NCBI RefSeq assembly: GCF_026571515.1
Contig: NW_026865099.1
Coordinates: 62,001-126,000 of the forward strand
Length of the DNA stretch: 64,000 bases
Source of the DNA: Ruditapes philippinarum
Lineage: Eukaryota
Direction: 5' to 3'
The position numbers were made by a program, and so were the translations under genes. Below, in pieces: positions 10,918 through 48,919 of the stretch; position 1 is the stretch's first letter, and the number at the start of each line of letters is the position of its first letter. The notes beneath the pieces are model-generated. The model made no database searches. It worked only from the letters and a program-made list of their open reading frames with translations, and had not been told where the DNA came from.

Positions 10918-13900
10918 ATGAACGAGATACAGAAATCGGTTTTACAGCGGCACTATAAGCAGTTGTCAGATGATATTATGATGACAGAAGATCTACTGGC
11001 AACACTCTTCACTAGAAAGGTGTTTGAGAGGGGGATGATTGAAACAATAAAGGTAATGCTCTCTTTTTTAAAATCTCTATAAAATTATTTCGCTATTTAT
11101 TATTTATCTCGTTTTTCAAAAAAAAAATCTCTTTGTAAAAACTGTTTTACTATGTTATATAATGTTTTGTTGTGCTTCTTTTTTTTTGTTTCAAAACTGG
11201 GGTTCATTTTGATTTGTTGTTATTTGTTTATTTAAAAAATAATCCAAATGTCATTATCATCATCATCATCATTATCATCATCATCATCATCACCATCTTC
11301 ATCATCATCATCATTATTATGTACATCTTATTCTTGTTTTTGTATTTATCATTATTATGATATCATCATCATCGCCAGCCATCATAATCATCAATATTTC
11401 ATAATTGAAATTTCTTATCATTTATCTAATCTTATTTTATTATTATTGATGTTTTATTCTTAATTTTATTTTATAAATACCGGTATTATTATAACATCAT
11501 CACCACTCATCTACTTATTCATAATCGCAATTATCAGTTCACCTGCTTACTGAGTGAGTTACTTATTCTGACTATGCAGCCAGTGCAATCTGATCATGGT
11601 CTGCACAGAGTTAGTTATTCAGTTGGTACATATTTTATAATCTCCCTAAAATTGATGAATTAGTATAATCCAGATTGAAGATGGGCAAGTCTATTTAAGA
11701 TATATATTGTGGTACCGGTTATTACATAAAAAAGCCGATGGTACATTAAAAAGATCTATATCCCTAAGTTTTGACAAATAAAATTTTAAATAAATAAACT
11801 GAATAATATAACTGCATGTAACACATTAAGATTTCATTTTAATTCCTGAATACAGTCAAACCTGTGAACAAGGTCATACAAAGGAGGGACCAAAAGTGAC
11901 TTTTATAGCCAAGTGGTCTTTATTGAGGGGTTGTCTTTAACCGTTTGTTAAATTTGTTGAAGAATGGTCTTAACTTGCAGGGTGGTCTTTCTTCAGAGGT
12001 AGTGTTTAACACAGGTTTAACTGTTACTTTGAGTTTCAAATTAAGATTTGAGTTTTCTCACACTTGCTGTATCTCTTTCTTTTCTTGAATGAAAAAGGCA
12101 AAGAATACCTGACATGCAAAATAACATTAACTTACAAAAAAGTGGTATTTTTTATCTGATAAGAATTCAAATAAGGTAAATTGAGCCTGTTTAGATAAAC
12201 TGCATGTAACCAAATAAAACTTCAGCTCAAACTACTTTTATGTTAAGGTGTTCAGTAAATTGCACAACACCATATGGGTTACATAAATATATAAAAAAAA
12301 AAATCAAAGTATAAGTTTAAGAAATGTATCCAGGTGAAATCGCAAAGGCTCAATTCTGGTTGAACTGATCACACCCTCTCCTCTATCCCCAATGATAACA
12401 TTAAGGTCTGCAAAACTTTAATTAATTAGATAATTCAATTCATTCTAGTGGCAATTTTCATTAATACAGGCTGAGAAGACCCCAACGGACCAAGTGTACA
12501 AAATGTTATCAATGTTACCAAAACGAGGTCCCGATGCATTTGACATCTTTGTTGACATTGTAAAAGACGAGTATCCTTGGTTGGCTGCGATGCTGGAAAC
12601 CAGTCTTAAAAATGAAACAGAGTCAATGCTGCAGCTGCAGCGTCAGAATTCCCTCCTAAACCTGAGATGTACGTCTGCTACAACAACATCACAGAAAATA
12701 GAAAATCAGTCTCAAGTAGATGGTAAGTGAGAAAATATTTTAAATTTCGTCTTGAGTTACTTTTTCTTCTTTTTCATTTTTCAATATAGTTACAATCTTA
12801 TAATTTCAAAAGTTTGTGTACCCCCTGGATTTCCTGGGAAAAACCAAAATATTCTAAATTCTGTAGTAAGTCTATTATCAGTCTATTATCATTGGAATAG
12901 GTTGAAATGTATAAATGTATTAAATGCCCATCATTGTTTATGTATTCTTTACCAAAATAAATCTATATATTGACAATGTTTTCAGTTGATTACAATTTGT
13001 GATGGATAAGTTTTCTTAAGCATTCAGAATCTTCTCTTAGACATTTGTCATGTTTTCTTAAACATGATGTATGTTTTCTCAAACATTAACTATGTTCCCA
13101 TCTAATTTGGCTACCTTGCTACCATTTCCTTTTTTTTTAAATAACAGCAAACCTTTCTCTTTTACTTTATGCAATTTATTATTCAAAGTCATGGAAATCT
13201 TAATTATACAAGTTTGTCATCTTACCATTCTGCTTAATTTATGTTTAGGAACTACACCAAGACCACTGGAAGTGAATGCTGACCCTGACATAAAGACAAA
13301 AGTGGGAACCTTTATACACAAACAGTTTGGTCAGAGCAAAAGAATCTCACAACAAGATAAGAAAATCATGGAAAAATGGTTATCTGAACAATTACAAGCA
13401 GAGAGAAAAATTAGGTAATTGTCACTTATTTAGAAAACAAAATTCAGCAGTGTTATAATGGGTTAAGTATTTTTGCCTGTAACACAGTTGCTTTTTGATT
13501 AATACTCTTTGCCCATTGAGATATTTTGTATTCTTTGAATATATAGTCAAATTAGGTAAAATTTCTTAAGTCATTTATTGTCATAGTCAAATCATTGTCA
13601 GATATTTTGCAGTTCCTTAAATATATATGCATAGTTTCCAAGACAGTCTTTCAAGCTACCTCTGCTTTTACATTAAAGTCTAGACACTGAGAGTCAAATT
13701 AAAGTTATAAAATCCATGCTATTTCAGAATCCCAAGCTTATTTGTAAGCAAAATTAATACCTAAGTACACAGGTAAAATGTTTAAGATGAATAAAATCCT
13801 AACCATGTTTGTGTTTTTTGTATTTTTTTATATTTTATAACATTTTGAGAACATAGATAGAAAATTAATCTGCAATAAAAACAGCTAATTTCCTTCTCTA

Positions 13901-14988
13901 TATCTAGTATTAACACTTAGTTGACACAGACCAGGACTACATTATTATTAACATAAATATTGTTATTAAAAATATGACAATTGTTGACACAAGAGAAACC
14001 TTTGGCGGTGAATTGTAAAAACATGCTTAAAACAAGTACAAATAAACTTTCAAAATATGTAACTTGTCTAATATCATATCTAAATATTATGGTTATGAAT
14101 TATGATAATTCCAGGGCCAAGAAAAGTTCAATTTCAACAGAGGAAGAGATGCAAGACCGAAGTGCATGTACAAGTCCTGATCCTATTCAAGGTGACTTGC
14201 AAAAGGTTTACAACAAAGTACGAGATGAAAACCTCAGTGACCTTCTAAACAGTGCACATGCTAGCAAACATTTTGAAGGTGAGAATGAATCCAAAGGCTC
14301 TGATGAAATTGATGCATCTTTTAAAAATGATACACCCATGGACATGGCAACAGTTGTAACGAAGCTTGACATGGAGATAGACAAACTGATCAACAGAATG
14401 AACCATATGGAAGGTCTTCTAACACAATGCCACTATATCCTCGGAGACCCAGACCGAAAACAAAAGCTACCAACTCTTATTAAAGACTCCCAAATGGAAG
14501 GTAAACAGTTTGAAAGAGAGCTGAATAAGGAGAAAGCTAAAACTGAAAAGATGCTTCATGAGTTATATGACTATTGTAAGTCTATCAATAAACTAGAAAA
14601 TGTCAGGCAACAGCAGAGAACAAATATTGAAAAGAATAGTGAAGAAATTGAAAGACTCAAAGCCGAGAACGCTGTCCTCAGGGAGAAATGTACAATGCTT
14701 GAAACAGTCAACAACAAGCATTTGGAAAAGGAAAAGACACTTAACAACTTGAAAAAGATGGTTGATGATTTGAGAAGTAGTCACACAAATCTAGCAGATG
14801 AGAATGCCAACTATAGAATCAATTATGGAACAAATGCTCTAAGAAACAATAGAAGACTAGGAGGAAGAAATGCAGTAATTCGTCGAGGGTCAACTGTTGC
14901 TGAAACCATGACAACCACAGTCAGAAAACCAGTTACAAAACAGGTTTTAAACACAAACAGAAGGTCCAAACCTTTGAGTAGAATTTGA
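10918..14988 (+). CDS. CARD + coiled-coil protein, paralog 2 (475 aa, 4 coding exons)
   Basis: Exons 10918-11052 (MNEIQKSVLQRHYKQLSDDIMMTEDLLATLFTRKVFERGMIETIK), 12470-12722 (AEKTPTDQVYKMLSMLPKRGPDAFDIFVDIVKDEYPWLAAML...), 13249-13414 and 14115-14988. All introns GT-AG, phases 0/1/2; total 1428 nt, in frame. Confidence 0.92.
11249..11320. repeat. (ATC)n microsatellite in intron 1 of paralog 2
   Basis: Direct inspection. It explains the poly-Ile and poly-Ser ORFs. Confidence 0.9.
11853..12023. mobile_element. Tc1/mariner (pogo-like) MITE, 171 bp
   Basis: TA|CAGTCAAACCTGTG ... CACAGGTTTAACTG (14-bp TIR, 1 mismatch). Confidence 0.7.
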
Positions 14989-23159: not shown

Positions 23160-24545
23160 AAACCAGACTCCCCCACCCCAAATACAACAAATGTTGTACG
23201 GAGGGTAGACTGGTTATTAAGGCTGTCCCAAAGTCCGGCTGTCTGGCCATGCTGCTGTCTGGTTGCCTGGTTGTCTGTCAGAGCTCAATCTCTTAAACTG
23301 CTCAACTAATTTAATAAAACTTGATAGAAATAATTGTCATGTCTGTCATCATGCTTTACTTGCACATACCATTTATCTTGTATTTTGTTCACATGAATGA
23401 CCTTAACCATATTCATTAAAATGAATGACCTTAACCATATTCATTAAAATGAATGACCTTAACCATATTCATAAAAATTTGCTGAAATTGACCAAATATT
23501 ATCAATAAATGTATTGTATTCACCTGCCACATTACATTCCTTTTTTTAAACAATAACTACTGTAGAGTGTTTAAGTAGGCCAAACTCAACTTGACCTTGA
23601 CCTTCATATGATGTTTACCTTTATGATTAAATGTCTGAATTCTGCTGACATTGTCCATAAATTTGCTATTTATAAATAAATTTAATTCATACTTTGAAAA
23701 ACAAAACAATATATAGCATAAAGTTGTCATGTTTATTAACTCAAACTTGGCCTTGACTTTAAATGGTCTTGACCTTTAAGGTCAAATATTGAATTTTGCT
23801 AAAATTGGCAATAACTTTGTTAATATTTGATATTTTGAGTTTATTCTTGGGCAAAACAATCATTTAGTAAATACCTTCAAGAAGGTCAAGCTGAATGTGA
23901 CCTTGACTTTTAAATAACCTTGGCATTCATGATTAAATTATTGATTTTTTCTTATGGCCTTTTTTATTTATGGACAGATTTGATTAATACCAGGACAAAC
24001 ACAACTGTCATGTCAACAAATTGTGTTGATCTTGTACTGCAACTGACCTTAAAATAACCTTTACAGTTAATGCAAAATCATTTAACTTTGCTTAAGTTGC
24101 CATAATTGTGTTATCAAAACACTGATGTTTTTAAAATTTGACTTATCACCAACTAGGATAAATTACTGTCAAGTGAAGCAATCAAATTATCACTTTGATC
24201 TTTATGTGACCTTGACCTGCAAAGTAAAATTATCAAATTTTCATTAAATTTGCAAAGATTTTGGTATGAAAGAATGGGTATGCTTCATATTTAGATATAA
24301 CAAAACTTTGGACAAAACTTTCAATGTGATGTAGCTCAGGTATGGCCTTGACCTTAAATTGTCCTTGACCCTCAACTCCAAGACATGATGAATTATTTGA
24401 ATTATGTAACTTAATTAAAGTAATTTATGCACAGATATGATTATTATTTGGACCCAATGATTGTATGATACCACTTGAAGTATGATTTAAAACTTTAAAT
24501 GAGATCTTTAAAGTCTATTTCTAATTCAAATATGACCTTGACCTA
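23160..24545 (-). mobile_element. old degenerate HINE-like repeat array
   Basis: Hairpin CCAGACTCCCCC...GGAGGGTAGACTGG, a (CTGT/CTGG)-type microsatellite, then recurring TGACCTTGA...ACCTT units. Includes a 28-bp x3 tandem at about 23393-23473. Confidence 0.5.
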
Positions 24546-25536
24546 TGACAGACTTTTGACAGGGACAAGTGCAGAAAAAGATCAGCTGGTACATTTGTGC
24601 CAATTACACTTAAAATGTACACCAATTATAATACTTGAAATTTACACCAATTATACTGATAAACACCCAAGGTTAAAAGTTAAACAAATAATGTTTAAAT
24701 TTACTACAAGACATCAACAAAGCTTAAACTAACTGTGATTGAACCATAAATAGAAGTTAATTGACAGAACTAGTAATATTACAAAGACATAAAGAAATAC
24801 AATACTTTCTAATCATTATTTCAATTGATTTGTTGCATAAAATTAACAGTACCATTGTTTGAACGAACAGCTTTTCAAAACAAATAATGGGCTAGATAAG
24901 AGCATTATGATTTCGGATCAAATATTTTCGCGACAAAGGGTTCTTTAGTGCCCTAATAATCGATCAGTGGTTGCCGATTGGAGATAAAGTATAGTATATG
25001 GTACTGGGTTTTAAAATCTTTTGGCAAGGATTGAATAGAGATTATAGATTGTATTATTTGAGTGTTATGCTAAGATATGCGGCTTTTAATAATTTCAGTC
25101 AGTGTCGATCGTGGGTCAGGCAGTAGCGAACTGTTTGGAATAGGTCTTAAAAACGGTAGTTAAATTAATTGTGTAACTGACAACTCAATTTTACATTAAT
25201 AAGCTACAAACGTTTTTTCTTAAATTAGGCATTAGTTAGACCTATAGAGTTTAGTTTCACTACAGTCATCATTGGAATAAAAATTACATCAGATTTTCTT
25301 TCTCACATTATTGGGATTTATACCATAAGGAAGACAATTAAAATTGATTTAATAAAAGAATTAAAAGGAACATCTGTTAAAAATTTATTACATTGTCAGT
25401 GTATTAGAAGAAGAGAACACAGAACAAAATATCAAGACATTAAGAAAAGAAGAAAAACAAAAGGAATAATTACACATAATGAATTAAGAATATAATTGAT
25501 ATCCTTAGGAAAAAAACACAGAAAAAAACATAGAAG

Positions 25537-28500
25537 ATGAACAAATCACAAAAGCGTACGCTACAGAAACACAACCCTGAACTGGTCCATGATCTAGAAT
25601 TGAGCGCCGATCTTGTAGCCAAATTCATACACCATGGACTCTTTAACGAGGACATGATTGATGATATTAAGGTAGGAACTATTTTTTTATTTACATAATT
25701 TTTGTTGCTGTTTTTTTTGTAATTTTTTCATTATTGTTTTTTAAGTTTTTGTTTTTGTTTAGGGTTTTTTGTGAGTATTTTTGGTCAGTTTAGAAAACAT
25801 TATCTCACTTACAAACTTTTACAGATTTAAACAAGAACACAGACTTTTCTCTCTCTTTTTCCATGAATTTCTTATGGCATATGTAGGATTCAATCACTGA
25901 AGAAAAAAAATATAAAGACCTTAAATTTTAAATATTAAAATGGCAGTTTTTTAAGTATTTCAAAAAAGTATTTAATTATTCTCTTAAATTCATAATTTTA
26001 ATACCCTTTTTTTGAATTACTCTATGAAACCTAAATGGCAGATGTACATTCTCTTAATATGAACATTTTCGCAAAATTTTTCTTCCCCGTATAGTTATCA
26101 ATTGAGTGGTCATTCCAATAATGTACTTTTAGAGTTGAAATTGAAAGTGCCTATTTCTTAGTGATAATTTTATCAATTTGTTGACAAAAAAAATATTACT
26201 CTTATCCTTACACTTTGATTCAACTTCTAAATTGTCATATAAATATAAGTCATGACTTACAGAAAACTGTAAAAGTAACTGTCCAAAGGTATAGTTACCA
26301 GTATACTGTTTAGTTTAGTATCATCGAGAAAATGAAATATATTTCGAATGACAAGATATAAAAATTTGTTAAGAGTAGTGAAAGTATCATGAATTGGTAA
26401 CTTGGTATCATTAAAAGTATTGGTGAGTGTATTGGTATCATACCATTTCCTTAATTCTTAATGATATCTGCATTTCGAAGTATCATATAAATTGAAGACT
26501 TTTAAGCATTATTATTTCAATGAGTCGTTCTTATTTTTCCTTAAGCCATGTGGTCAAATATAGTTTTGATTTCCAGAGTAACTGACTCACTTTCAGAACC
26601 TTGAATTACAAAATTAACAAATAAAGCTTTCAAACTTTTAAGTCACCTCAGATTGTTTATTATTTTCATCAGAAAAAGGAAATTTAACTTTTAAGATTAT
26701 CTTATAATTCAATTCAGTACCAAAAATGAATTACGAACTATATTTAATTCTACATTTCATTCATTTACTTTACAAAGAACCAAAACAACAATTTTTAAAA
26801 TCATTAATTCGATTTCAAAATCCTGTTTGTTCATATGCCAAATAAAAATGAAACAAGAGGGCCATGATGGCCCTAGATCGCTCACCTGAATTATCAAACT
26901 CATCCAAACAATTACCTAGACAAGCATTCTGACCAAGTCTCATGACAGGTGAGTCAAAAATGTGACCACTACAGTGTTAACAAGGATTATCGCATATTTG
27001 AGCAGTGCGACCTAGTTTTTTTACCCAGGTGACACATATTCAAACTTGACCTAGAAATCATCAAAACAAACTTTCAGACCAATTTCCAGGATACTAATGG
27101 ATCAAAACAGTAGCAACTAGAGTGTTTAACAAGATTTTTCTATTTTTAGCTCCGGTGACCTAGTTTCACATGCGATTTCGAACTCATCCAAGCAATTACC
27201 TAGACAAGCATTCTGACCAAGTTTGATGATAATTGGAGTCGAAAATGTGACGCACTAGAATGTTAACAAGGTTTTTTCCATATTTGGGCAGTGTGACCTA
27301 GTTTTTCATCCAAGATGACCCATGTTCGATCTTGACTTAGAAATCATCAAAAACAAACTTTCAGACCAATTAACAGAATATTTGGATCACAACAGTAGCC
27401 ACTAGAGTGTTAACAAGATTTTTTCTATTTTTAGCTCTGTGACCTAGTTTTTCATCCGAGATGTCCCATGTTCGATTTATTCCCAGCAATGACGCTAGAC
27501 AAGTTTCCTGACCAAGTTTGATGACAATTGAGTCAAAATTGTGACCACTAGAGTGTTAACAAGGTTTTTCTATTTTTAGCTCCTGTGACCTAGTTTTTCA
27601 TCCGAGATGACCCATGTTCGAACTCATCCGAGTTATTACCTAGACAAGCATCTTGATCAAGTTTGATGATGATTGATGCAAAAAATGTGACCGCGCTAAA
27701 GTGTTAACAAGGTTTTTCTATTTTTAGCTCCGGTGACCTACTTTTTCATCCGAGATGACCCATGTTCGAACTCATCCAAGCTATTAACTAGATAAGCATC
27801 CTGACCAAGTTTGATGATGATTGATGCAAAAATGTGACCGCTAGAGTGTTAACAAGGTTTTTCTATTTATAGCTCCGGTGACCTAGTTTTTCATCCGAGA
27901 TGACCCATATTCGAACTCATCCGAGCTATTATCTAAACAAGCATCCTGACAAAGTTTGATGATGATTGGGTCAAAAATGTGACCACTAGAGTGGTCACAA
28001 GGTTTTTCTATTTTTAGCTCCTGTGACCTAGTTTTTCATCAGAGATGACCCATGTTCGAACTCATCCAAGCAATTGACTAGACAAGCATTCTGACCAAGT
28101 TTGATGATGATTGGTTCAAAAATGTGACCACTAGAGTGTTCACAAGGTTTTTCTATTTATAGCTCCTGTGACCTACTTTTTCATCCGAGATGACCCATGT
28201 TCGAACTCATCCGAGCTATCACCTAGACAAACATCCTGACCAAGTTTGATGAAGATTGGGTCAAAAATGTGACCTCTAGAGTGTTCACAAGGTTTTTCTA
28301 TTTTTAGCTCTTGTGACCTAGTTTTTCATCTGAGATGACCCATGTTCGAACTCATCCGAGCTTTCAACTAGATAAGCATCCTGACCAAGTTTGATGATGA
28401 TTGAGGCAAAAATGCGACCGCTAGAGTGTTCACAAGCAATTGTGGACGGCCGGACGGACGACGGACGACGGACATTCATCGATCCTAAAAGCTCACCCTG

Positions 28501-31500
28501 AGCAAGCTCAGGTGAGCTAAAAATAAATGATTTTAAATGGCTATTTGGTAAACAAACTTCGGTTTCAATTGCCAAAACTCACAAAAGCTTCAGATAAGAA
28601 CAGACCAAATAAACCATTTAAATTGACTGGTTCTTTTATAAACTTAGAAGCCTGCACTTCACTAAAACAAATAAAATAAACCTCAACTAATTGATAAAAT
28701 GTTATCACAGAATGTTATCACAGAAGGTTATCATGCCTGAAATTCATTTTGTTTTGCTCTTAAATTTCAGTCTGAGAGGACAAGAAAGGACAAAATACAA
28801 AAACTTCTCTCTCAGCTGCCAAGAAGAGGTCCACGTGCATTTGATATGTTCGTGCACTCAATTCAAGACAATTACCCATGGTTAGCAGATTCTCTACGCA
28901 AAACTCATCACAAAATCAGCATGAAATCAGGTATGTTGATTCAAATCACTTTCAATTATGATGATGATAATAACAAATATTCTATTTAACCTCTTTATCC
29001 ACCCAAACTCCTCACAGTGGTTACTTCCATTTATAAGTACCCTATGCCAAAGAATTAAGGCGAGATCACTGTGTGGAGATTGGGATTGCACTGGTTGCAT
29101 AGGTAGATTCAGTCACCGGCATCAGGTTAATGGTTAAAGAGGTAACACAGTTAGGCATGCCCAGTCTTCCCGATTAGGCTTTATCAAATTAACAATAGTA
29201 TAGAGTAACAAACAAAAGATTTGATAAACATAATTTTTTTTTAAAGAGATGCCATACACAAAGTAATTTTTAATTTTTATTTTTATTAAGTTATCCTAGA
29301 AATTAGTGGCTTCACAACTCAAGGATCATGGGTTTGTGTCTACTGGGATCTGATAAACTCATAGAAAATTAAATAGTTAATAAAGGAGGCTGAATCCCAA
29401 ATGATTCCACTAAAATTCACCGTAACCTTTATCATGCTAAAATAAAAATACGGTAACTTAAATTTAAATAACTAAAACATTCAACTTTTTCATGGAGATC
29501 TGAGACAGAGATTTCATTAAAAAAATGTGAACTTTAATGACCTTTATGACTATATTTTTACCTGTCAAATTTGTATTGGACAAGAAATGATTCACTTTTG
29601 AGTTATGAAATAACTTTAATCTTTGATCTCCGTAATTGGGCCTTTCTAATTACCCAATATAATGTGCCCGAAACTTAAACACAATAGTGTGAACGACTTA
29701 ATCTCTATTTTCCGCTCATGTATACACGTACCACTATTACTATAACTATTATCATTATTATTATGAGATATAAGCTTCAATTTTTTTTTTTTCAATTATA
29801 CCAAAAATAAATAAAATATAAGCAAGGAAAATTGTTTCACTAAAATACAAATATCATTTTTTATTTTTGTTGTTTTTGAAAAGATTTTTTTTTTGTCTCA
29901 AATTTCATAGAATTTTTTTTCTATTATTCCATAAATAAAATATCAATTAAGGAAAAATTGCATGTTTCACTAAATTACAAATATCTTATTTTTCTTTGTT
30001 GTTTTTTGAAAAGATGTTTTTCTCTATCTCTAAAATTTCATAGACTCAAGGTGAGATTTAAAATCCTGTGATATTATATTCAATAAAGAAAAATTATTGT
30101 CAGTGTCATTTGCCATTTAAATTTAAAACCCATACAAAACATGTCTCCTGGCTGTTCAAATCTATTCAATATTTACATTTACATAAACAGCCGGTGTCAT
30201 GAATGTAGAAATACATTGAAGGGTAAACAGTAACCCCCAATTTACGTCAATATGTTCAATATTACATCAAACAACCTATATAAACCTATTAATGTCAACT
30301 TTCAATGGAGATATAAGCTCAATATTAAATTTAGTCATAGCCACATAATAGTGACAAGGCTTTAGAAAGGTTTAATTTCAATCATTCAAATGAATGACTA
30401 CATTTCCAAATCTAAGCTGATCAAATCTGTATTAAAACTTTGAAAGAATATAAGGGATTGAAGGCTTAAAATTTTAGCTGAATTGCATCACAAGAATTTC
30501 TTTTCCTTGGCTTACACCCCCAAAAAAGTACAAAACAAAAGATCAATCTCAGACAAATTAATTTCCATCAATATTTAAAAAAAAAATTTTTTATTCCATG
30601 CCCTGTATACACTTCAAGAATAATACTCAAACACTTATTCGAGGAAACATATTAACCTGTTCAATCATATTGTTAACAGTATAACTAATGTTAATCAGAT
30701 TAATTGCACATTTTTTTCCCTCTCTTCCAGAGCCTGAACTGATGAGCCTGAAAGAGAAGGTTGACATATATGTGCATGAACATTTTGGTAACAGTAGAAG
30801 ACTATGCGAAGAAGACAAGAAAGAGATCAGGAAATTCCTGTATAAACACCTTAAAAGTCACGCTGAGGAGCCTATAGACAATGGAAATGATCGAAGAGAC
30901 AGTATTCAGAGTGATATCAGTGAAGACATTAAAGCACTCCAAGAATCACACAAAAACCAAACACAGTTAAATGAAAAAGATATAGAAAATCAAGTGCTCC
31001 AGCGGGTGTATTCAATTCTAAATGGTGTTAAATTAGATGAGATAAATGATGGTTTCGAGGATCTAGATTGTGTTGATGGTCCATGTATCACGTTAGAAAC
31101 AATTGAAAAGAAAGTTAATCAAATGAATAGACAAGTGAAAGACCTTCAAAATGAAATTGCAGATTGTTTTAGTGTACTTGGACTAGAGAATTGTGAATAT
31201 ACATTATACGAAGTTCTTGAGGCATACAAAGAGAAAACAGATGGTGAAATGAAAGAAATGAGAGACAGAGTGGAAGCACTTGATAGAAGAAGGCGAAAAC
31301 TTGAAGAAAAACTAAAAACAAAAGAAAAAGAACTTCACAATTGTATGAATGAACTTGCAACTTCAGAGCATGAGAATGAAAAATCAAAAGTGCTACTTAA
31401 AGAACTGCAATCAAAATGTGATAAACTTGAGCAAATACAGGAGAAACACTTAGAAACACATAAGACATATCTGAAAAAAATAGTTCACGAGTTAACGCCA

Positions 31501-32639: not shown

Positions 32640-32676
<37 letters not shown>

Positions 32677-34544
32677 CAATCTTATTTACTGACTGAAAAT
32701 CTGAGACTTATTTATTTATTGTGGCCCAGTAGTGTTTTTTAATTCCAAGGAAAATAACAACATCTGAATGTGTTATTTTGTTGTGCCAATTATTTTAAAG
32801 AAAAAATTGCAAACTAATATACATAAAGTTTTAAGACTGTTTAGTTTTTTTAAAAAAGCATCACTTTCAATTTATTGAAATAGGTTAAACCCATTCTATA
32901 TTTACAAAATTAAATGTAAATTTTAAATTTTATTATTGTCATAAAAGTTGTACATTTTTCCGTTTGTTTAACCTTGGCAAACCAGTGAGTGGGTATCAAA
33001 AAGTACAAGGATTTTAGTTTAGTTTATATTTAACCAAGATTATAGGTGACAGACCATCCAATAATGGTCATAAAATGTAGACAGAATGACTAAATAAAAC
33101 TTTGTAACTGAGAAAAAATCCACCAATAACTTTAAGAGCTAAAAACATTCTATTCTAATAAAATTTTTGCTATGACTTTTTAAAACATGATCAAACATTT
33201 CCTACATTTTTTTTTACATTTTTTAACATTAAACATTCTCTTATTGGTTCTGACTTAATATTTATAAACACTAAGTCTGGATAAAAAATATTTTTTTATA
33301 TTTTTAATAATAATATTCTTATTAATGCATTTAACCGCTATGCAGATCTTAATTTGAGAAGGGTAAAACATCAAAACTTTAAACATAAAACTACCTTAAA
33401 AGATTTAGAAAGTCATGAATATTTATTTTTTGGAAGTCAACTTTTTATAGACATATAAAAATTGTTGCCACTAACATTCCACTTTTTTTCTATGTTCACT
33501 GTTAAAAATAGTGCACAAGATGATATGGAACAAAATCATCTAAAATCAGCACCCATTAGTGCCAAAATTAATGGTGTAAATTATTTTTTTATCACTACTA
33601 TCATTAAATCAAATCACCTCATGTTCATCCATGTTTTTTCATCATTACTCTATTAATTTATTTTTTAACTATTTTTTCGTTTCCTTTTTTGGTGGGGAAA
33701 GGTGAGGACAATAATCTGTTTCCATCCAACAAATAACAGTGGGGGAGGGGGGGTCATAATTTTTTTCACTTGTTTTTTGTTGGTTTTTTTTACAAATATT
33801 TTGATGATTTTTCCTATCAAATAAATACATTTAAGCAAAATCAACTTCCTTTGAAAAAAACTGTGTCCAATAATCCATTAAAGAATTTGATTTACTCCCA
33901 ATAACTACTAACCACAAAGACTTATCCCCATCTTTTGATCTGAACAAAACCATTCATTATTCTAGGAAAACTTTCAAAATATTTACTGACTGAATAGCAA
34001 ACAGTGCAGTCCATGTTCAGATGGTGTGCCAGCTGAGCTTGGATCTGTACTGGTTCCCAGCATGAGTAGAATCAGATGCCACTCGAAATATCATAAATTA
34101 TGTTCTTAAAAATAACAACAAGAATCTAACAAATTCAAAATGACAAAATTCAATCAAATTGCTTTTGAAGAACCTGTTTTTTTTTTATTCTGCCATTCAC
34201 TTCATTACAACCTGACCATTTTTATCTTTTAAACAGAATCATTACATCTAGCTAGTGTGATCTTCAAGTTCTATTATTTTGCTGTTCTGTCTTCTGTGTG
34301 TTTCATTCTTTAAATCAGAAATAATTTATTTCATTTTCATCTTGCTACCCTTTTTGTTATCAGGAATCTTATTTGACATTGTTCATTTTTCCTGTCAAAA
34401 AGATAATTGAGGCTGGTGGGAGAAAAATGTTTGTCAGACAGTTTCTGTAGAATATCAATTGATCTACACATTTTCGCAAATTTCGAAGTAGTCAAAGTTT
34501 AACCCTATAGATTGTGTTTTTGTGTGATAGATTTCTCCAGTATA

Positions 34545-34830
34545 ATGAATATAAGACAGTCCCTTTATGAGACAGTCCCTTTTTCAGGTATTATGAACAT
34601 AGGTTAGTCCCTATGTCTGGTATTATGGATATGGGACAGTCCTTTTGTCAAGTATCATGGATATGGGACAGTCAGTTTGTCAAGTATTACGGATATGGGA
34701 CAATCCCTTTGTCCAGGTATTATGTATATGGGACAGTCCCTTTGTCCAGATATTATGATAATAATGGTTCCCCTTTCCTTTATTGATATCAGTTCGGCTA
34801 ATGGGACATTCCCTTTGTCAGGTATCCTTG
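34545..34830. repeat. minisatellite, about 31-bp unit
   Basis: Repeated ATGGGACAGTCCCTTTGTCCAGGTATTATGGAT variants. Confidence 0.8.
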
Positions 34831-35977: not shown

Positions 35978-37624
35978 AACTAGAAGAATCACTAAATGTG
36001 ACTGCTTCGGAAATGAGGATGTTACTAGTAACAGAATACCTTGTAAAGAATTGAAACAGAGTTATGGTTGTGGGCAATTAAAGATAGTTGTGGCTCTTGT
36101 ATGTTGCATTTCCTTTCAATGTGGTTGGCCATTGATGAAGTTTTATTGGATTACTCTGTAAGAAGTCCAGAAAGACAAGGAAAAGGAACAAAGAGCAATA
36201 ACTCTATAAATACTGAAGATTGATTTATGGCTATTGTACACTGCACTTCCTCTCATTGGCACTTGACCATAGTTATGAAGTTGTATTGAATTCCAACTAC
36301 TTAGTTTTCAAGTTATGCACTGGACAAAAAAGTAACAAAAGCAATAACTGTAATTAGTCCAATAGAGTTTTATTGTTCTTGTGCACTGCACTTCATCTCA
36401 CTGCCCTTGAACCATTGTATAAAGTTTCATTGAATTCCAACCATTAATTTTCAAATTATGCACTGGACAATAAAAAGTAACAAAGGGCAAAAAACTTTTA
36501 AATTAGTCAAAAAAGAGTTATGCTTTCTGTGCACTTGCACTTCCTCTCAATATACTTGATCATAGTATGAAAATAGTTTTGAATTCCAACTAGTAGTTTT
36601 CAAGTTATGCTCTGGACAAGGAAAAGTAACATAGGACAGTAACTCTGTAATTAGTCAAAATGGAGTTATGGTTTTCTTGTGCACTGCACTTTCTTCTTAT
36701 TGTGCTTGACCATTGTATGAAGTTTTTTAAATTCCCAACCAGTATGTTTTAAGTTATGCTCCAGACAAGGAAAAGTATCAAAGGGCAATAACTCTGTTAA
36801 TTTGTCAAAATGGAGTTATAGTTCTTGTGCAACTGCATTTCCTCTTTAATGTGCTTGACAACTGCAATGAAGTTGTATTGAATTCCAACCATAGTAGTTT
36901 TCAAAAAGTTATGCTCCAGACAAGGAAAAGTAACAAAGGGGCAATAACTCTGTCATTAGTCAAGATGGAGTTATGGTTCTCATTGCACTGACTTCCTCTC
37001 AATGTGCTTGAACCATTGTATGAAGTTATATTGAATTCCAACAAGTAGTCTTCAAGTTATGCTCCGGACAAAAAAAAAGCAATCGAAAATATTAAAGGGC
37101 AATAACTCTGTAATTAGTCAAAATGGAGTTATGGGTTCTGTGCATGGCACTTTCCCTTATTGTGCTTGGCCATTGTATGAAGTTGTTTTGAATTCCAACC
37201 AGTAGTTTTCAAGTTATCTTCCGGACAAGGAAAAGTAACAAAGGGCAGTAACTCTGTAATTAGTTAAAATGGAGTTATGGTTCTTGTACACTGCACTTCC
37301 TCTCAATGTGCTTAACAATTGTATTAAGTTATATTGAATTCCAACTATTAGTCTTCAAGTTATAGTCCGGAAAAAAGAAAGCAATGGAAAAATAACAAAG
37401 GGCAATAACTCTGTTATTACTTTAAATAGAGTTATGGTTCTTGTGCACTGCACTTCCTCTCAATGTGCTTGACCATTGTTTGATGTTATATTGAATTCCA
37501 ACCATTAGTCTTCAAGTTATGCTCCGGACAAGGAAAATGCAACGGACCGCTGGACTGACCGACCAACCGACCGACCACCGGGTGACTCCTATATACCCCC
37601 CAAACTTAGTTTTTTGGGGGTATA
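35978..37624 (+). mobile_element. satellite-bearing HINE-like element (about 145-160-bp units, about 10 copies)
   Basis: Tandem AACAAAGGGCAATAACTCTGTAATTAGTCAAAATGGAGTTATGGTTCTTGTGCACTGCAC... units, a (GACC)n microsatellite and a 3' hairpin TATACCCCCCAAAC...TTTGGGGGTATA. The 5' boundary is approximate. Confidence 0.82.
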
Positions 37625-39414: not shown

Positions 39415-40211
39415 GGTGACAACACATCAGTAGGCAATAACACAACAGGCATCAACACATCAGCAGGACTGTGTCAACACAACAGCAGGCAACAACAAAT
39501 CAGCAAGCATCAAGTGGGGAACAAAAATTAGCAGACAAGAACACATCAGTAGGTGTTAACACATCAGCAGGTAACAACTCGTCATCAGATAACTACATAT
39601 CAGCAGGTGCTATCACATCAGCAGGCAACAACTCATCAGCAAGCAACAACACATCAGCAGGCAACAACACATCAGCAGACAACTTATCAGCAAGTAACAA
39701 CTTGTCAGCAGATAACTACATATCAGCAGACAGCAAACACATCAGCAGAAAACAACACATCAGCAGACAACAACACATCAACAGACAACAAACACATCAG
39801 CAGATAACAACACATCAGCAGACAACAACACATCAACAGACAACAACACATCAACAGACAACAACACATCAACAGACAACAAACACATCAGCAGACAACA
39901 ACACATCAACAGACAACAACACATCAACAGACAACAACACATCAGCAGACAACAACACATCAACAGACAACAAACACATCAGCAGACAACAACACATCAA
40001 CAGACAACAACACATCAACAGACAACAACACAGCAGGCAACAACACATCAACAGACAACAACACATCAGCAGGCAACAACCACTTCAGCAGACAACAACA
40101 CATCAACAGACAACAAACACACATCAGCAGACAACAACACATCAGAAGACAACAACACAGCAGACAACAACACATCAGCAGAAAACAACACATTGGCAGG
40201 CAACAACACAT
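39415..40211 (+). repeat. CA-rich minisatellite (about 18-bp unit CAACAACACATCA(G/A)CAGA) just upstream of the paralog 4 start
   Basis: About 40 copies, more homogeneous in the 3' half. Produces the stop-poor ORFs seen on both strands. Confidence 0.92.
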
Positions 40212-40282
40212 TAAAGAAACAAAAATTGAGCTGAATTTATACAAGGATCAATATCAAAGGACACACAGACAGAGACATAATA

Positions 40283-43200
40283 ATGAATGAATTACACAGA
40301 GCTGTGCTACAAAAGCACACACAGGATATTGTCAGAGACATGATTGTTACTGAAACCTTACTAGGAACAATGTTTCAGAATAAAATCTTTGACAGTGAAA
40401 TGGTGGAAATTATCAAGGTAAAATCAAAAACATTCATCTTTCAAATGAATTTAACAGTACATGCTTAAGATTAAGTAAATAAAGGTTTATTTTATCAATT
40501 TAAAGTGTATATATAGAGCTATATATCATTCTGTTGCCTGTATTTTGAAAAATTGTTCTTTAAATTTTGCAAAAGGATACACTGCAGTCCCATTATAAAA
40601 CTCATGTTGGAGTCCAAGGTATTGCGTAAAAGTTCTAATAACATGTGATCTACCCGTTATAACTGCGTTCTGATATGTAAAACTCATTGTGAGTGAGTAG
40701 GTTAGTTTTAATTTCATACTGAAGGCTTAACAATCTTTGCAACTAGAACTCTCAGTGTAAATGAAGATTTTTTTTTAAGATATACCTAGTAGAGGTCAGT
40801 TGATGACTTCTAAAGCTTTATTGGTGTGTGAATATCTCCCTCCTTGCATAATTTAAGGCGCAAACTGGCACCTGAGTAGAACCACTTTTTATAAGCTAGC
40901 TGGATAGCTTCCTCACATGGAAGAATCCAGACTCCCTGACAGGATTCAAACCCACAGCAGTGAGGGGCCAGTGGTTTAAGGTCAGTAACCTTAACCACTA
41001 TACTACAAACATTCAAATTATGTTCTGTTATTTGTTATTTAGTCTGGAAGAACACACAGTGAACAAGCGTACAAGATGTTAGAGTTTCTACCAAAGCGAG
41101 GACCAGATGCCTTTGACAGCTTCTGTGAGGCTTTACACGAAGATTATCCCTGGGTCGCAAAACTGCTGAGAGAGACTGTTGAAACAGAAAGTGAAAGAAT
41201 TTTAGCTGTACAAAGCAAGAAAGATGATATTGCTACTGAACAACGTAAGTTGCTTTTATATCAATCTAATAAGGATGAACATAAAAAGGTAAGTAACTTA
41301 TGTTAAAATCTATAAATTTATCAAATAAAGGATATGCACATTTACTTCCCTTTTTGATAACAAAATTAATTTTGTATATTTCTTCCGAAATGGTGCACAA
41401 TTGAATTTTAAAATAGTCCTTCATCACTGTAGGCTGAATTCAGTGCTTGACCTAAACCGAATACATTTACTTTCTTCATGGAAAAGTGACAGCTTCCATT
41501 TAAGAACGTAAAAGTTCTGTCATTTCCGCATTTATTTACATGCATTTATTTGAATAAAGTACATCAATTAAATCAATAAAAATCAATTTCCCGATCTAAT
41601 TTTATATTGAAATGAACAAAATAACTAAAAATTAAATTGGAAATCATCATCTTTTTGACGGACGGAACTCGCAGCTTCTTCACCAGGTCGGATATATACT
41701 CGCATTTTCGAATAATATTGGAAGTTTTATTTCAACAAAGACAATTTATTGTTGGGGTATGTATTGCCTTACATTCTATTTGATTAGTTTATGTGTTTTT
41801 CAATTATTTTGCAAAATAAAGGAATTAGAATAATGTAGATGATGAACAATGAACGTCTGTCAAAAAAGCAACGTTCGCAAAAAACTGTCCATCGACTCGG
41901 TTATTGTGTGATTATGTATTGGGTGGGGATTCAAAGTTAGTGTTAAACTTGGTACTTTCTGGTTTTACAGGTGGTTTCTTAAGTTTTGAAGCCATAACCA
42001 GAAATTTTATTGAAAAAAGGTTGCTAACGTAATTTCTGTCAATTTTAGTGAATGACGTTCGCACATTTGTTCCTCAGTTTATAGCTGTTACTTCCCTTTT
42101 TTGCGTAGTGACAAGAAACTACGATTAAATCTGTAAGTATCCGAATGCAAAAACATGGCCGAATTGAGACGCTCGATTACATGATCCAAATTATTTTGAG
42201 TAAGTTTGTGTCTGTCAAGTGTTTTAAATGTTGACGATAGCAACAATAAGTACATATAGATATTTTTATATATTTTAAAGAAGAGAAAACATATTAAAGT
42301 CGAGTTGTATGCAGGAAATAGACAAATACACGGACGTCTACTGCTTCCAATGACTGATTACGCTTAAAGCTGTTGCGAATGTCATTTTTTGACGGACATT
42401 CTTGTTGCATACGTCATTTATCGACATACACAATTGGTGCTATCGTCATTCTTTGACGGCTGTTAATGATGCGATCGTCATATTTTGACAACTGTCAATG
42501 TTTTGACATAATAAATCTACATGTAAACATTGTAGTGTCAGTAATACTAGGGAGTGAGAGATGGATTGAGTTGAATTACAGTCAAATCGGCCCCAAGTCA
42601 GATCGGCCCCAAGTCAGAGCGGCCCCAAAATAGTCAAATCGGCCCCAAGCAAAATCGGCCTCAAGTCAGATCGGCCCCATTTTTTTTCTTTGTTCATTTT
42701 CTTATTTAAATGTTGTTAAAAAAAATGTGTGGATTGGAATATCAAATGACTAACAATGGATTACATAGAAAACCAGAACAAAACATAATAATCAATATAA
42801 TTTATTGTCTGAGTATAACATTTATCTTCACTGTACTAAACTATTTATTGTCTATAAACATATGAACAGTATGTAAATGTCACTTTTCATGTAATTGTCA
42901 CTTCTCAAGCAAAGGTATAGTGGAACCCCATTGTATCGTGCTATTCATTGTATCGATCTATTCACAAATCTTTAGATTTTTTGCAAAATACGTCACCTAC
43001 TGATTGTTAACATTAACAACAGTGTCACGAAAATCTTTCGCATTTATTTTTGTACAGTAAAATGATCAAAAACATGTTTCCAGTACCGTAAGACGCTGTA
43101 GATAATAAATAGACTTATAAATAATATGTTCTTATTAAAAGTACATTTACTGTCTGTTAAAAGTTCCTAAATTTATGCTGACATTTTAAAACAGACATCT

Positions 43201-46200
43201 ATGTTATTAATTGACTTATTTATCTAACATAAAGATGGTTAATGTTTCCCAAACTTTGGCTAACTGAGCAATTCTCACAATGCATCGATATAATGGCGTG
43301 ACCTAATTCTTCAACCTGTTTGACATGTCTGTAAATATCCGTTTATTCCAAAGCTAAAAACTATATATCAGTGATGTTTGCCAAGTAAATATTATGGCAA
43401 AAGGATCAAAATAAATGATACAAATTAAATATTCAGTGAGATTTGATTTTTTTAAATTCAGTTGTGATTTATGGGTAAATAGATCGATACAACAGGGTTC
43501 CAGGCTAAACTATGAATAACTTGCCTTATTACAAATTAATGCTTTCTGTTTTCTCATTTATATGTCTTTAAAAGTTATGTCTCTACAAGTTTGCAGAAAG
43601 GTATACCTAAAAATTCTGAGTAATGATATATGTAGGAATACTTAATATTAACTTTATAATGTAAAATCTTGTTTGTTTGCAGTGACTCGAAGCAATTGAA
43701 GACTTGTGGCGATGATTTGGCCGACAGTTTGATTGAAGACATTGGTATACCTGCTACCAAGCAAAGGTAAACTATGAATAGTAAATGAAACAATTTCTCT
43801 TTGTATACCCACCCTATAAAATGCCGGGCATGATGGCGCGGTGGTTAGTGCACTTGTTTTTCATTTTGAGAGTTGTAGCTTTGATTCTCGGTCAGGCCAT
43901 TTCTCTCGGACCAATTGATAAAAGTCCTTGTGTCTTAAGTCTTTCGTCTCGCACCTCTGTTTCAAGTGAGGCAGAAAAAGAGGTAATATGTCTAAAATGA
44001 TATGGAGAGTGTGTGCACAAGTTAATTTTTGAATCAGTTTTTAAAGGCGTGGTTATCAGTTTTTAAAGGTCTACATTTCAACAACTTTTCATGCAGGTAC
44101 CCTGTAGGAACTAACCTTCTCATCAGAAATGGATCAGAAAGTTTTAAAGCTGTTGTAAGTAGTAATGTTTTAACAGATTGGTTAAATTCAGTACACAAAA
44201 AAAGGCAATGCAAACTAGCAAATTTGTCAGCTGTCTGTCAAAAGGTGCAATCAGTATTTTTTTTCAATTTTTCTGGAAATGGACAAAGATTTATCAGCGT
44301 TTATAAGAAGCTAAACAATTAGTACTGACTTTATTCTTCAATGCATTACTTTTGTTTGGCCTGTATTGTGCTGTTCCATTTTTGTTACTTTGGAAGTTAT
44401 GTTTTTAAAAAAAATTGTTACTTGTGAGTTAAAAAGTTGTTTTTTTGTCTTCATCACATTTAATATATGTTAAAACCCAATATAAGGCACTCTTGCTGAC
44501 AAGATTTGCAGTCAGATATCAATCTCCGGAGTTCATGAGTTTAAGCCTTAGCCATACAACATGAGTTGAATTCCCAGCCATATAACAGTATTTCAAGCCC
44601 CAGCCATATAGCATTTATTTAATAAAGATTAATTATTAAATAATTTTTATAATACTGCATGTTTGTAACGTCGCTTTTCATTGGATAATCTTGATGTTTA
44701 TATAGTGTTTTATACACGTGACACAGCTATTGTTGATTAATAAAGAAATCTTGCTTTATTCCTCTAAAAATGATCCTTGCTAGCGATTTGGGTTTTATTT
44801 TACAAACAGCCATTTATATAGGGCCATATAACCTGTCAAAAATCTTTATAACTAATAATATAGCCTTACTATTCAGGTAAAGCAGTTGTCTGTTCATGTG
44901 CAAATATTATTTGTTTATACATGTAGTGTATATGCATTTTTAAGTCTTTTCTTCCGGTTAATATTGTGATGATATGAAGCAACATTTGAATGTCAATCAG
45001 CTTGACTTCATTACCAGTTGTGGATACTTGGTAAATACATTTGATTGGTTCATTGAGTCCAGTTTGACCTCTTTGATAGATACTGGTAATTGATTAAATG
45101 TTATTGGTGCAACAAGTCATTGATTGTACATCATTTTGCAGGTTGTTCAAACCCATGAGCTGCACAGAGAGGAGAAAGTCTATGGATTGTGGGTCCAGTT
45201 CTATAAGAAAGGAAAGCGACAATTATGGACATTGGAGGAGAAATCTTTCTTTGTTTGTTGGGAGGATATCATTAAACAAGTTGCTGAACCTACTGTCTAT
45301 GCATGGATCTAGATAATACTACAAATTTTGAGTGTTTGGTGTACAGTTACACTTAATAGCCCATCAGAAAGGCCGACATGGTGACTTGTGCTTTTACATC
45401 CAATTTGGTGTAGACTGTTTTCATACTTTCTTACAAAAACTGTTAGAAATATAATATATCTTTTGAAAAGTTTCAATAGCCATTGTCAATTTATTTTGTA
45501 AAATACGTTCTTTAGTGCCTAGAACAGTTGATGGCCAGTGTTTTGACAGTTAATTTCGGATAATGTCCAAATAAATTTACATAATTTACTTGTTTGCTCT
45601 TAGAAAACTTTTACTTGTTGTCATTTGTTTTCTTGTATCCATTGCGAAAAAGTACTTTAGAAATTGTGAAAGAACATTTGTTCCGTCCAAAAATGATGGT
45701 AGCAACAATTTGTTCCGTCCAAAAATGATGCTAGCAACAATTTGTTCCGTCAAAAAATGACGTTTAGCAACATCATCAAAAATGAATAAATCTGTATCTG
45801 GCCTGTTCCCTGCAGAGATAGTACTTCCTTTACATACAGTTTTCAATCTTTTATTACTTAGAATAAAATGCTGCTAATTATAATAAAGAGAATGCTTAAT
45901 TTTTCCAATTTCTGAATGTTGTGAACGTAAAAATATCCGTCAAATATTCTGTCAAATAATGACGTTAGCAACATGAAATTTAAAACATGATTAAAACTCA
46001 AAAATACATCTGCTATAATTTTTATTTTCATGTTTTTGACCTAATATAATAGCAATCTTATCATATATATTAAAAAAACTGCAATTATTTTATATGTACA
46101 AAAAAATATCCTTGGGAGCTATTTTGACGGAAATTTTATGTTCTTAAATGGAAGCTGTCTGTTGTAGATTCGAATCCCACTAGGGACATCAGATTTTTTC

Positions 46201-48919
46201 ATGCAAGGAAACTATCCAGCTAGCTTACAGAATGTGAGTGGTTCTACTGTGGTGGAAATGCACAGATATTTACTTTTAAAACTTGTTGTCACACCAGTAA
46301 AGCTGACAGTGTCATCTGACATGATGAAAGTCATAGTGTCTCAATGCCAAAAAAATATCCAAAGTAAATAATTATCATTCATGTACATTATAATGAAATT
46401 GTAAACTACAGAAGTTTGTATTTTTTTCAGTAACCACACCCAGAAGTTCATCAGCATGTGGTAAGGCGGATTCAGATATCAAGATACGCGTCAGCGCATT
46501 TGTACAGAAACATTTTGGACAGATACGTCGTATATCTAATGGTGACAAGAAAGCTATTGAATGGATGATGATTAAATGGTTACAAGCAGAGAGAAAAAGA
46601 CTTACTAAATCTATAGACGAGGCATATATGGGTAAAACGTCTTCTAATTTTTCTAATTTTGTTTCTTTGATTTAAATCACACTGACTATGGTGACAATCC
46701 AGTTTTATGAAAAGAGACAAAGGTATCTCTCTGTGCATCATTTGAGACAATTGTGAAGGCACCTTAGCAGAACCATCAACCTTTTGTTATCTTAAAGCAG
46801 GATAGCCTCTTCCAAAGAAAGAATCAAAAGTCCCTGTTTTAACTTATGTTTATACAGATACTTGTTTTCCATATGGTTTTAGAAATTTATCAAACATTTC
46901 CCAGGATTTATACTTAGATATATAATGTAATCCAATTTAATTTTCATTTAAAAATTTAAGACTATATATTAAGTTGATAATGAATGACAAATTTCTTTAT
47001 CTAGGCAACTGACATAACACAAGTTACCTTGAAATTATTCCATAGGAAAGAGTATAGCAAGTTGCTGACAGTTTCAGTGCAATAATTTGCCTCAAATGGA
47101 AACGGCAATCCTTTAAAAATTGTCTTACTTTTTGTCAATAAATTGTATTTTGTCAATACAGAAACCCATCAGACGGATGTTCTTCAGAGTGAGAAGGTGA
47201 AGGACAAACTTTTCTTCCTTTACACCAAGATTGTGATGAAACAACAGAAATCTCCAGTGAAAAAGATCCTGGGCAGAGCAAAGGTACATCAAATATTACA
47301 GGGACTCCACTGAGGTTTTTTGACATGATGGGATTAGGATTTTTTTCAAAGATTTGTGTACCATTTGATGTATATCTGAACCACTAGCTTTTTGCAAATT
47401 TTCAGATTATTCTCTTGTCCTGTTTTTATAGAATATTCATTACAACCTTCTCCCTTAATAAAGTCAGTAAGATCTCCCTTAATAAAGTCAGTAAGAATTG
47501 CAGTTACTATAAATTTTCACTTTAATTCTGAGTATATTTCTTTATTATCCATTCTTTTTGCATTCTAAGTACTTCACTTGATTTATGTAAAAGTTTATGT
47601 AGTCAGTGGAGCTATTTTAGCTATCTTTTTACTTACATTGTTAAATGAAACTTTGCTACAGTATATATTTCATGGGTATACTGGAACCTAGAAAGAGAGT
47701 AGTCAAGCAATGTTGCAAACCATCAATATTTAAATGCACATTATGTCATAGAAATGAATTTATTGTTCCTTCCTCAGAAAGGACAAACATGTATTTTATA
47801 ATGTTTTACTAACAGATATAGAGCATTTTGGATGATTTTCATCTGAAGAAAATACAAGTAAATGTAAAATAATCTGTCAAAAAAGTAGCAAAATGTACAA
47901 TATTTTGACTTAAATTACAAAATACTTAATCACTACAACTGAACTTATTTCCAAAAATGCATCAGAAGGAAATGATGTTTGAGCTATATAGTTCAAGAAT
48001 AACTTTTTGGAAATTAAAACCGGGCACTTAAATTTGATTTTTAAAGATTTTGAGGCATTCTCCTCTATACTATAAAGTAGGCCTAATATTTTCTAAGAGC
48101 TTATAGGCCTGTTAAGCATACTTACAGCCACTATATATAAGGCAACTACTATTGTTAAGTCATGATGTTAGTCACTTCATACAAATACAAAAACAAACAT
48201 TATAAATTTTTTTTAATGATTCACTAAAGGCAATAAGTGATGGAGTTGAAGGAGCAGTTACACCTATAGAAGACAAGAACAGAGACATTGCTCCACAAGA
48301 TATAAACTTTGATGTCCTTAAAGCAGAAATTGATGATCTCTTCACTCATATGGACTACATGGAAAAACAAATTGACAGAAGTTATGACTATATAAATGGT
48401 AGAATGAGTGGGAAGGACATATCTATACTTGTACATGAATTATGTGGAGAGTACAGATATAAAGAGAAAGAATTGGTTCAAGAAAAAGTGAAGACAGAAA
48501 AAATGTTAGTCGAGTTGTACACTTTCTCCACAAACTCTAGTAAGCTTGAGAATACGATACATGCTCAAGAGCATGAAATCATAGCACTTAAAGAGCAGAT
48601 AAATAGAGTAAAAGAAGACAACTTGTTGCTTATTAAAGAAGTTACGGAACTTGAAAAAGCCAAGTTAATTCATCTTGAAAAAGAGAAGACACTGATTGAG
48701 CTGAAGAAAGCAAAGGAAGATCTACATGTAATGATATCAGTGGTAAATAAAGAGAATAAAGAATTAAGGGAGAAGATGCAGCAAGGAATAGCAAGAAATA
48801 CTGGAGGTAGACTGTATCAAAATAATAGAAGAGCACTGGCAAATACAACAAACAATGCACAGAAAGCTGTACCGAGAAGAGTGGTGCAAAAGAAAAGATC
48901 TGTTAGTTTTAAGATGTGA
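40283..48919 (+). CDS. CARD + coiled-coil protein, paralog 4 (about 449 aa, 5 coding exons)
   Basis: Exons 40283-40417, 41043-41244 (MLEFLPKRGPDAFDSFCEALHEDYPWVAKLL), 46431-46631 (TTPR...ADSDIKIRVSAFVQKHFGQIRRISNGDKKAIEW...LQAERKR), 47162-47283 and 48230-48919. Phases 0/1/1/0, total 1350 nt. The last acceptor is a weaker AAG. The C-terminus aligns with paralog 2 (EKxKTEKMLxELY, KLEN, HLEKEKTL). Confidence 0.85.
40810..41000 (-). mobile_element. tRNA-derived SINE in intron 1 of paralog 4
   Basis: Core GGCACCTGAGTAGAACCAC...AAGCTAGCTGGATAGCTTCCTCACATG and a tRNA-like head. Confidence 0.65.
42580..42680. repeat. short tandem AGTCA(A/G)ATCGGCCCCA repeats (orphan transposon terminus)
   Basis: About 6 copies of a 16-18-bp unit. 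No inverted partner seen in the window. Confidence 0.7.
42918..43505. mobile_element. degenerate pogo/Tc1-like MITE nested in the 4.67-kb element
   Basis: TA|TAGTGGAACCCCATTGTATCG ... CGATACAACAGGGTTCCAGGC|TA. Confidence 0.55.

Follow-up and report, generated by a model that had tools for sequence, protein, structure and literature searches.

A stretch of 64,000 nucleotides from the Ruditapes philippinarum genome (contig NW_026865099.1, positions 62,001 to 126,000; G000:C13586:62001-126000 of a 1.41-Gb assembly), hereafter the window, carries six genes in tandem, all on the plus strand. Each encodes a CARD, interrupted after codon 45 by a phase-0 intron, and, towards the C-terminus, a coiled-coil region. 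Behind the CARD of the second, third and fourth gene (paralogs 2, 3 and 4) lies a module of ∼41 residues that is a real element, with sequence, gene structure, splicing in paralog 2, conservation and post-CARD position all established. The module is understood as an ancient and apparently undescribed small domain that marks a lophotrochozoan family of proteins with a RAIDD-like CARD and a coiled coil. With a probability that we put at roughly 0.4, it would work as a latch that shields the CARD of the same protein until a signal frees it.

The module and its predicted fold

The three genes and their module cores are placed in the window as follows.

10918..14988 (+), paralog 2 gene, 475 residues; exons 10918-11052 and 12470-12722 (CARD), 13249-13414 (module), 14115-14988
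13287..13409 (+), module core of paralog 2, in exon 13249-13414; residues 143-183 of protein P0001
25537..31713 (+), paralog 3 gene, 425 residues; exons 25537-25671, 28771-28930, 30731-31713; open model with GT..AG introns
30745..30855 (+), module core of paralog 3, early in the last exon, 30731-31713
40283..48919 (+), paralog 4 gene, 449 residues; exons 40283-40417, 41043-41244, 46431-46631, 47162-47283, 48230-48919
46475..46597 (+), module core of paralog 4, in exon 46431-46631 (201 nt, phase-1 introns on both sides)

The module peptides named in a preliminary description of the window were found at the sites claimed for them, on the plus strand of paralogs 2, 3 and 4, and all three pairwise scores (85, 111 and 70) exceed every one of 5000 shuffles (shuffle maxima 48, 52 and 45). 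Exon models of all six paralogs are open, with introns bounded by GT..AG. The paralog 2 model agrees letter for letter with P0001, recorded as an uncharacterised Ruditapes philippinarum protein, and its last exon encodes two further helical blocks (helix B and hairpin C), the coiled coil and a basic tail. The exons of paralog 3 match P0002 at 95-100% each. The paralog 4 model is collinear with its Mercenaria orthologue P0003, from which the phase-1 donor was placed at 41244; the GT at 41288 would break the frame. As had been claimed, the module exon follows a phase-1 intron in all three genes, with GT..AG ends, but a phase-1 intron also occupies this place in paralog 1, which has no module, so that intron phase does not single out the module genes. 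The flanking linkers, described earlier as unconserved, are so upstream of the module, with the refinement that this linker measures only ∼10 residues in paralog 3. A hidden Markov model (HMM) of 20 module sequences scores paralogs 2, 4 and 3 at 88, 83 and 74 bits, all three being within the model, and paralogs 1, 5 and 6 at no more than 0.9 bits each, in agreement with the earlier statement that the module is unrecognisable in the latter; hhalign likewise finds no module in the last exon of paralog 1. Genome-wide, the paralog 2 module as query gave three matches from three candidates, all in the window, a count to be read as a lower bound, and the gastropod-type member P0082 as query gave no match in the same genome.

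Splicing is documented for paralog 2 by one Logan contig (run X3) that joins exons 2, 3 and 4, with both introns skipped at their GT..AG ends. It carries 22 base differences, of which 19 were translated (10 in exon 2, three in exon 3, six in exon 4); 15 of these are silent, including all three in the module exon. Among the listed holders of the sequence, no record is marked as RNA. Three raw-read runs place 20-66 reads on paralog 2, with no exon junction among the matches listed, and no junction of paralogs 4-6 occurs among the joints listed (59 further joints lie beyond these). The 201-nt module exon of paralog 4, with phase 1 on both sides, would allow in-frame skipping; no such joint is among those listed.

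AlphaFold2, run on the paralog 2 protein with 72 sequences, places the CARD at residues 3-106, the module helices at 142-156 and 164-188 with a predicted local distance difference test (pLDDT) of 94-96, a further helix at 208-235 and long helices at 262-293 and 303-409; linkers and tail fall below 60, the first linker below 50, and the overall predicted template-modelling score (pTM) is 0.39. Folded alone, the module takes the same shape (pLDDT 90.8, pTM 0.70). The helix-loop-helix proposed from the letters is thus borne out by prediction: a first helix, a 7-residue loop opening at a conserved Phe-Gly and a second helix opening with Asp-Lys-Lys. In an alignment of 76 rows, partly chosen by module similarity and counted over the rows filling each column, the best-kept positions are Gly157 (96%), Asp166 (95%), Phe156 and Lys167 (both 92%), followed by Val148, His153 and Ser159 (83%) and by Lys145, Arg161 and Lys168 (82%). 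Hydrophobic positions are conserved on both helices (144, 148, 151, 152, 156, 162, 170, 173, 174, 178). The net charge of the three window copies is +4, +1 and +6, and helical spacing suggests that the conserved basic residues are surface-exposed.

The preliminary description could not assign the module to a known domain, and that judgement holds, there being no Pfam, PDB-sequence or specific fold match. It had named a Pfam match, or disorder without conservation, as what would speak against a new domain; what emerged is a segment that is ordered by prediction and strongly conserved. Pfam returned no family for the window modules, and a scan of 20 members at E up to 10 gave a best stray match of E 0.016. 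LEM, SAP, HeH and similar small domains are ∼40 residues long, helix-loop-helix and basic. The module resembles them in size, layout and charge but differs in that it has generic fold matches and no Pfam match (none of 20 members hits the LEM, SAP or HeH families at E up to 10, HMMER filters dropping weak matches). The module profile found four PDB sequences (best E 0.11), and a resemblance to RbfA (E 0.7) was dropped as chance. For the isolated module, Foldseek gave 18 PDB matches, none under E 3.6, and a fold search of a viral library 81, none under E 2.3. The VIA fold search over 48,161 chains retrieved generic helical hairpins (best Z 5.6, root-mean-square deviation (rmsd) 2.1, 44 aligned); LEM, SAP and HeH structures, which are not among its best 50 matches, may nevertheless be similar in fold. 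ESM Atlas feature searches produced no usable match for P0001 128-235 and only leads below 0.9 for P0097 100-175. A homodimer prediction for the module scored 0.06 against a mark of 0.32; it was run without alignment or folded controls and is counted neither way.

Range and age of the family

A profile of the three window modules matched 18 proteins, the named ones all from clams, and a full-length profile matched 35, adding Saccostrea, Mytilus, Pecten, Haliotis, Gigantopelta, Elysia and Nucella. Searched against 1.84 billion representative proteins at E up to 0.001, the 20-sequence module profile returned 60 matches, 58 of them with the module; P0071 and P0083 were discarded as repeat artefacts. 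Two matches are not independent of the window, P0043 being one of its exons and P0001 perhaps a product of the same genome. A Pfam CARD is present in 23 of the 60, and the module stands behind it in every one of the 23; the other 37 consist of the two artefacts, four proteins with a partial CARD, one with a Mutator-like N-terminus that is probably a chimeric gene call, and 30 fragments with at most ∼40 residues before the module. Record names extend the list to Lingula anatina, Pinctada, Sinanodonta, Patella and Aplysia. Capitella teleta came in through a profile built from divergent members, which gave 27 matches. No named match lies outside molluscs, brachiopods and annelids; many matches are unnamed, so that this range is a lower bound. 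In P0023, P0038, P0059 and P0089, the module is truncated, the coiled coil missing, or two family genes fused. These four are probably annotation variants; a short CARD-module isoform behind them is possible.

Ten paralog-2-type proteins taken from the full-length profile search were compared with paralog 2. The module is 60-77% identical and the CARD 51-67%, the module ahead in all ten; the coiled coil, where present, reaches 24-62% and the first linker 2-26%. On sequence identity, the module is the best-conserved part of the protein in these relatives. The linker from CARD to module varies between types. In paralog-2 and paralog-4 types it counts 35-50 unconserved residues. In the paralog-3 type and the annelid type, with Capitella ELU16507 among the short-linker members, it is down to ∼10, and the second module helix then continues for ∼65 residues without Pro or Gly.

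By sequence comparison the module is far older than the window's cluster, which the preliminary description, made from the window alone, did not see; nor did it see the RAIDD-like character of the CARD. Locus numbers that adjoin in Mya, Sinanodonta and Haliotis (numbering, not coordinates) suggest that the cluster is itself old, as does a Pinctada model in which a module gene is joined to a paralog-5/6-like gene. A CARD tree of 92 columns, in which 19 of 45 inner branches are open, groups paralog-2, -3, -4, -1 and -5/6 types apart and places module-less genes at three points; repeated loss of the module among the paralogs is suggested. A literature search by subject, locus and accession names, subscription journals being mostly outside its coverage, found nothing describing module or family, the oyster protein CgCARDCP-1 lying outside the comparison.

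A RAIDD-like CARD and the possible roles of the module

Pfam recognises the CARD at residues 7-89 of the paralog 2 protein, with many sub-threshold coiled-coil matches further on. Compared with solved structures, the family CARD profile finds RAIDD at E 3e-17, ∼12 orders of magnitude ahead of the next match (caspase-9, 2e-5; CARD8, 0.03), caspase-2's own CARD being possibly outside the structure library; CARD9 and CARD11 are not among the best 60 of 70 matches, which run down to E 0.5. RAIDD (3crd) is also the closest solved sequence to the CARD of P0001 (E 5e-7). In shape, the CARD model is nearest the CARDs of caspase-9 and APAF-1 (caspase-9 5wvc_B: Z 16.0, rmsd 1.3, 98 aligned; CARD9 6n2p: Z 10.9, rmsd 1.8, 85 aligned). 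While CRADD/RAIDD has the same type of N-terminal CARD, it ends in a death domain, in place of which the family has the module, two more helical blocks and long helices totalling ∼150 residues; family proteins measure 425-475 residues and are tandemly duplicated. The family is not CRADD because no death domain was found in 60 Pfam scans of relatives (49 at E 1e-4, 11 at E 1e-3, one protein overlapping earlier sets). RAIDD is reported in the same three phyla as the module family (PMC11463336), and members of the family may be among the sequences filed there as CRADD.

The CARD-CC proteins (CARD9, CARD10, CARD11, CARD14) share the order of CARD, then coiled coil, in CARD9 with a short helix and glycine turn between. 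According to PMC6624267, CARD, short helix, glycine turn and long helix of CARD9 form an autoinhibitory interface, and the coiled coil extends over ∼300 residues from ∼15 residues past the CARD; the linker running through a glycine turn into the long helix is also described in PMC11874512. In paralog 2, by comparison, ∼170 residues, including the module and two disordered linkers, separate the CARD from the main coiled coil, which has about half the length of that in CARD9, whereas annelid-type members come nearer to the CARD9 layout. As CARD type and coiled-coil layout differ, the family is not CARD9/CARMA. Invertebrate CARD-CC proteins are treated as CARD9 homologues in PMC5978004 and preprint 10.1101/046789; to judge from CARD type, an overlap with our family is unlikely.

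Elsewhere in the genome, two CARD genes have caspase-domain exons downstream (contigs C14595 and C1293), one of which is placed as follows.

Contig C14595, L013:728-862 and 5200-5340 (+), caspase-linked CARD gene; first exon of 45 codons, phase-0 intron

Its CARD intron agrees with that of the family in position and phase. This gene is a candidate partner or ancestor.

Autoinhibition, dimerisation and ligand binding, the functions proposed in the preliminary description, are all conjectural. In the latch that we favour, the protein would oligomerise through its coiled coil, and the hairpin would fold back so that its conserved basic face (Lys145, His153, Lys160, Arg161, Lys167, Lys168) meets an acidic side of the CARD. 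Once released, the clustered CARDs would be free to bind a caspase with a CARD or some other CARD protein. Such a latch would be a convergent version of the CARD-linker-coiled-coil latch of CARD9 and CARD11, not its homologue. It is ranked first because the module keeps to the post-CARD position and, in members of paralog-3 and annelid type, where only ∼10 residues separate the two, leads via a conserved glycine turn into the long helix, much as the CARD9 linker does. Also counted in its favour are the lead of the module over the CARD in all ten paralog-2-type relatives, the high conservation of Phe156, Gly157, Asp166 and Lys167, the RAIDD-like CARD and the CARD intron common to the caspase-linked gene. 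Several findings weigh against it. Contact between CARD and module is a conjecture, the full-length model having a pTM of 0.39 and a linker pLDDT below 50. The linker of paralogs 2 and 4 is long and unconserved, unlike the short fixed linker of CARD9, and six family members on the contig (paralogs 1, 5 and 6 and three upstream genes) have a CARD without the module, so that the CARD does not need it; both observations speak against an obligatory latch. In two divergent relatives the CARD is the better conserved of the two (P0042, module 28 vs CARD 34%; P0004, 33 vs 45%), the order being reversed in a third distant protein (51 vs 46%). Finally, an outside partner would account just as well for the conserved basic residues.

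That last point leads to the reading in which the hairpin is an input domain docking an outside partner, in the role of the RAIDD death domain; candidates would be a receptor tail, a kinase, a phosphorylated peptide, a membrane lipid or a nucleic acid. The lead of the module over the CARD in ten of ten paralog-2-type relatives, its conserved His, Lys and Arg with a positive net charge in each window copy, the predicted flexible linkers on both sides and the lack of a death domain in the relatives scanned are all in keeping with docking, as is the absence from lophotrochozoans of PIDD, the upstream partner of RAIDD, reported in section 7 of PMC11463336. Docking domains often shuffle, however, and among the profile matches the module occurs in no clearly different architecture. 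On balance we consider docking unlikely, though deserving of serious attention.

A purely structural role, as a four-helix dimer cap or by packing on helix B and hairpin C so as to set the register or oligomer state of the coiled coil, appears less likely again. With two helices and 45 residues, the unit is small for an independent domain, hydrophobic positions are conserved on both of its helices, and the second helix runs into the long helix in annelid-type members. Dimerising hairpins do occur among the tied fold matches (GLD-1 3k6t, Qua1: Z 5.0, rmsd 6.2, 48 aligned; SIP 2a26, N-terminal hairpin: Z 4.8, rmsd 5.6, 47 aligned), but their rmsd is high and they are no better than the unrelated chains that head the same search. 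Packing gives no ready reason for the conserved His and Lys/Arg, and the module-less paralogs retain their coiled coils.

COP, INCA and ICEBERG are CARD-only decoys; like them, the family consists of non-catalytic tandem CARD genes with an exon boundary in common with a caspase-linked CARD gene, but it differs by 180-380 further residues of conserved structure (models of 272-475 residues). That the family proteins are decoys, whose possibly caspase-derived CARD sequesters CARD caspases or CRADD while the module serves localisation or stability rather than switching, is the least likely of the four readings: the common CARD intron, the lack of a catalytic domain in the relatives scanned with Pfam and the repeated tandem duplication with module-less copies would suit it, but the CARD of the family retains the aromatic-Pro-Trp end of RAIDD type, which is missing from the clam caspase CARD, long coiled coils belong more typically to scaffolds that cluster, and the high conservation of the module would be left unexplained.

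The wider cluster and its significance

The family members without the module are placed as follows, in window coordinates unless a contig is given.

721..2825 (+), paralog 1; exons 721-855, 1271-1415, 1738-2825; CARD, hairpin C and coiled coil
51166..52467 (+), paralog 5; exons 51166-51300, 51784-52467; CARD and coiled coil
54789..56827 (+), paralog 6; exons 54789-54923, 56132-56827; CARD and coiled coil
G000:C13586 15559-17800 (L010), 24057-34760 (L009/L008) and 52377-54438 (L004), upstream genes; C-terminal part paralog-1-like

The C-terminal part of paralog 1 is homologous to the module family (E 2e-5). For the post-CARD part of paralog 6, the profile comparison with the module family is not significant; a post-CARD segment common to paralogs 5 and 6 (∼51940-52120 and ∼56310-56480) resembles gastropod helix B by eye, without support from profile comparisons. 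With the three CARD-coiled-coil genes in the 62 kb upstream of the window, in which no module was detected, the cluster comprises at least nine genes. The long exons of L008 and L010 are near-duplicates, and an extra paralog-1-like gene lies on contig C10133 (L014:4495-5502 and 9007-9177, minus strand). Open frames within the upstream cluster at L008:3345-4782 (-) and L005:3149-6863 (-) presumably belong to retroelements, resembling LINE-type reverse transcriptase and a DIRS-type element. In the window, an 18-bp tandem repeat of ∼38 copies (39530-40211), open in all three plus-strand frames, ends ∼70 bases upstream of the paralog 4 start codon; satellite-like arrays with units of 145-161 bp lie between or inside genes (4794-5750, 26897-28436, 36174-37537). 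Minus-strand open frames at 58029-58280 and 59658-59888 encode coiled-coil-like peptides and are probably exons of a gene facing the cluster.

Lastly, our analysis has importance for proteins that are now auto-annotated as keratin, SAS-6, DNA ligase 1, caspase 9 or CRADD. The predicted fold of the module is an ordinary helical hairpin; what appears to be new is the domain as such and the family that it marks. Loss of APAF-1 and absence of PIDD are both reported for molluscs, annelids and brachiopods, and as these are the phyla named among the module proteins, the family is a candidate regulator of caspase-2. A more far-reaching idea, which we regard as a long shot, is that the family constitutes the missing caspase-activation platform of these phyla, in which the hairpin would sense or gate, the coiled coil would cluster and the RAIDD-like CARD would recruit caspase-2 for apoptosome-free cell death, the module-less paralogs acting as constitutive or dominant-negative tuners. 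Since some paralogs have the module and others do not, nature supplies the pairs for a direct comparison. Should the latch prove true, it would represent an independent invention of the CARD9-type latch; and regulation of CARD caspases by the family, if true, would bear on apoptosis without an apoptosome in farmed bivalves and other lophotrochozoans.

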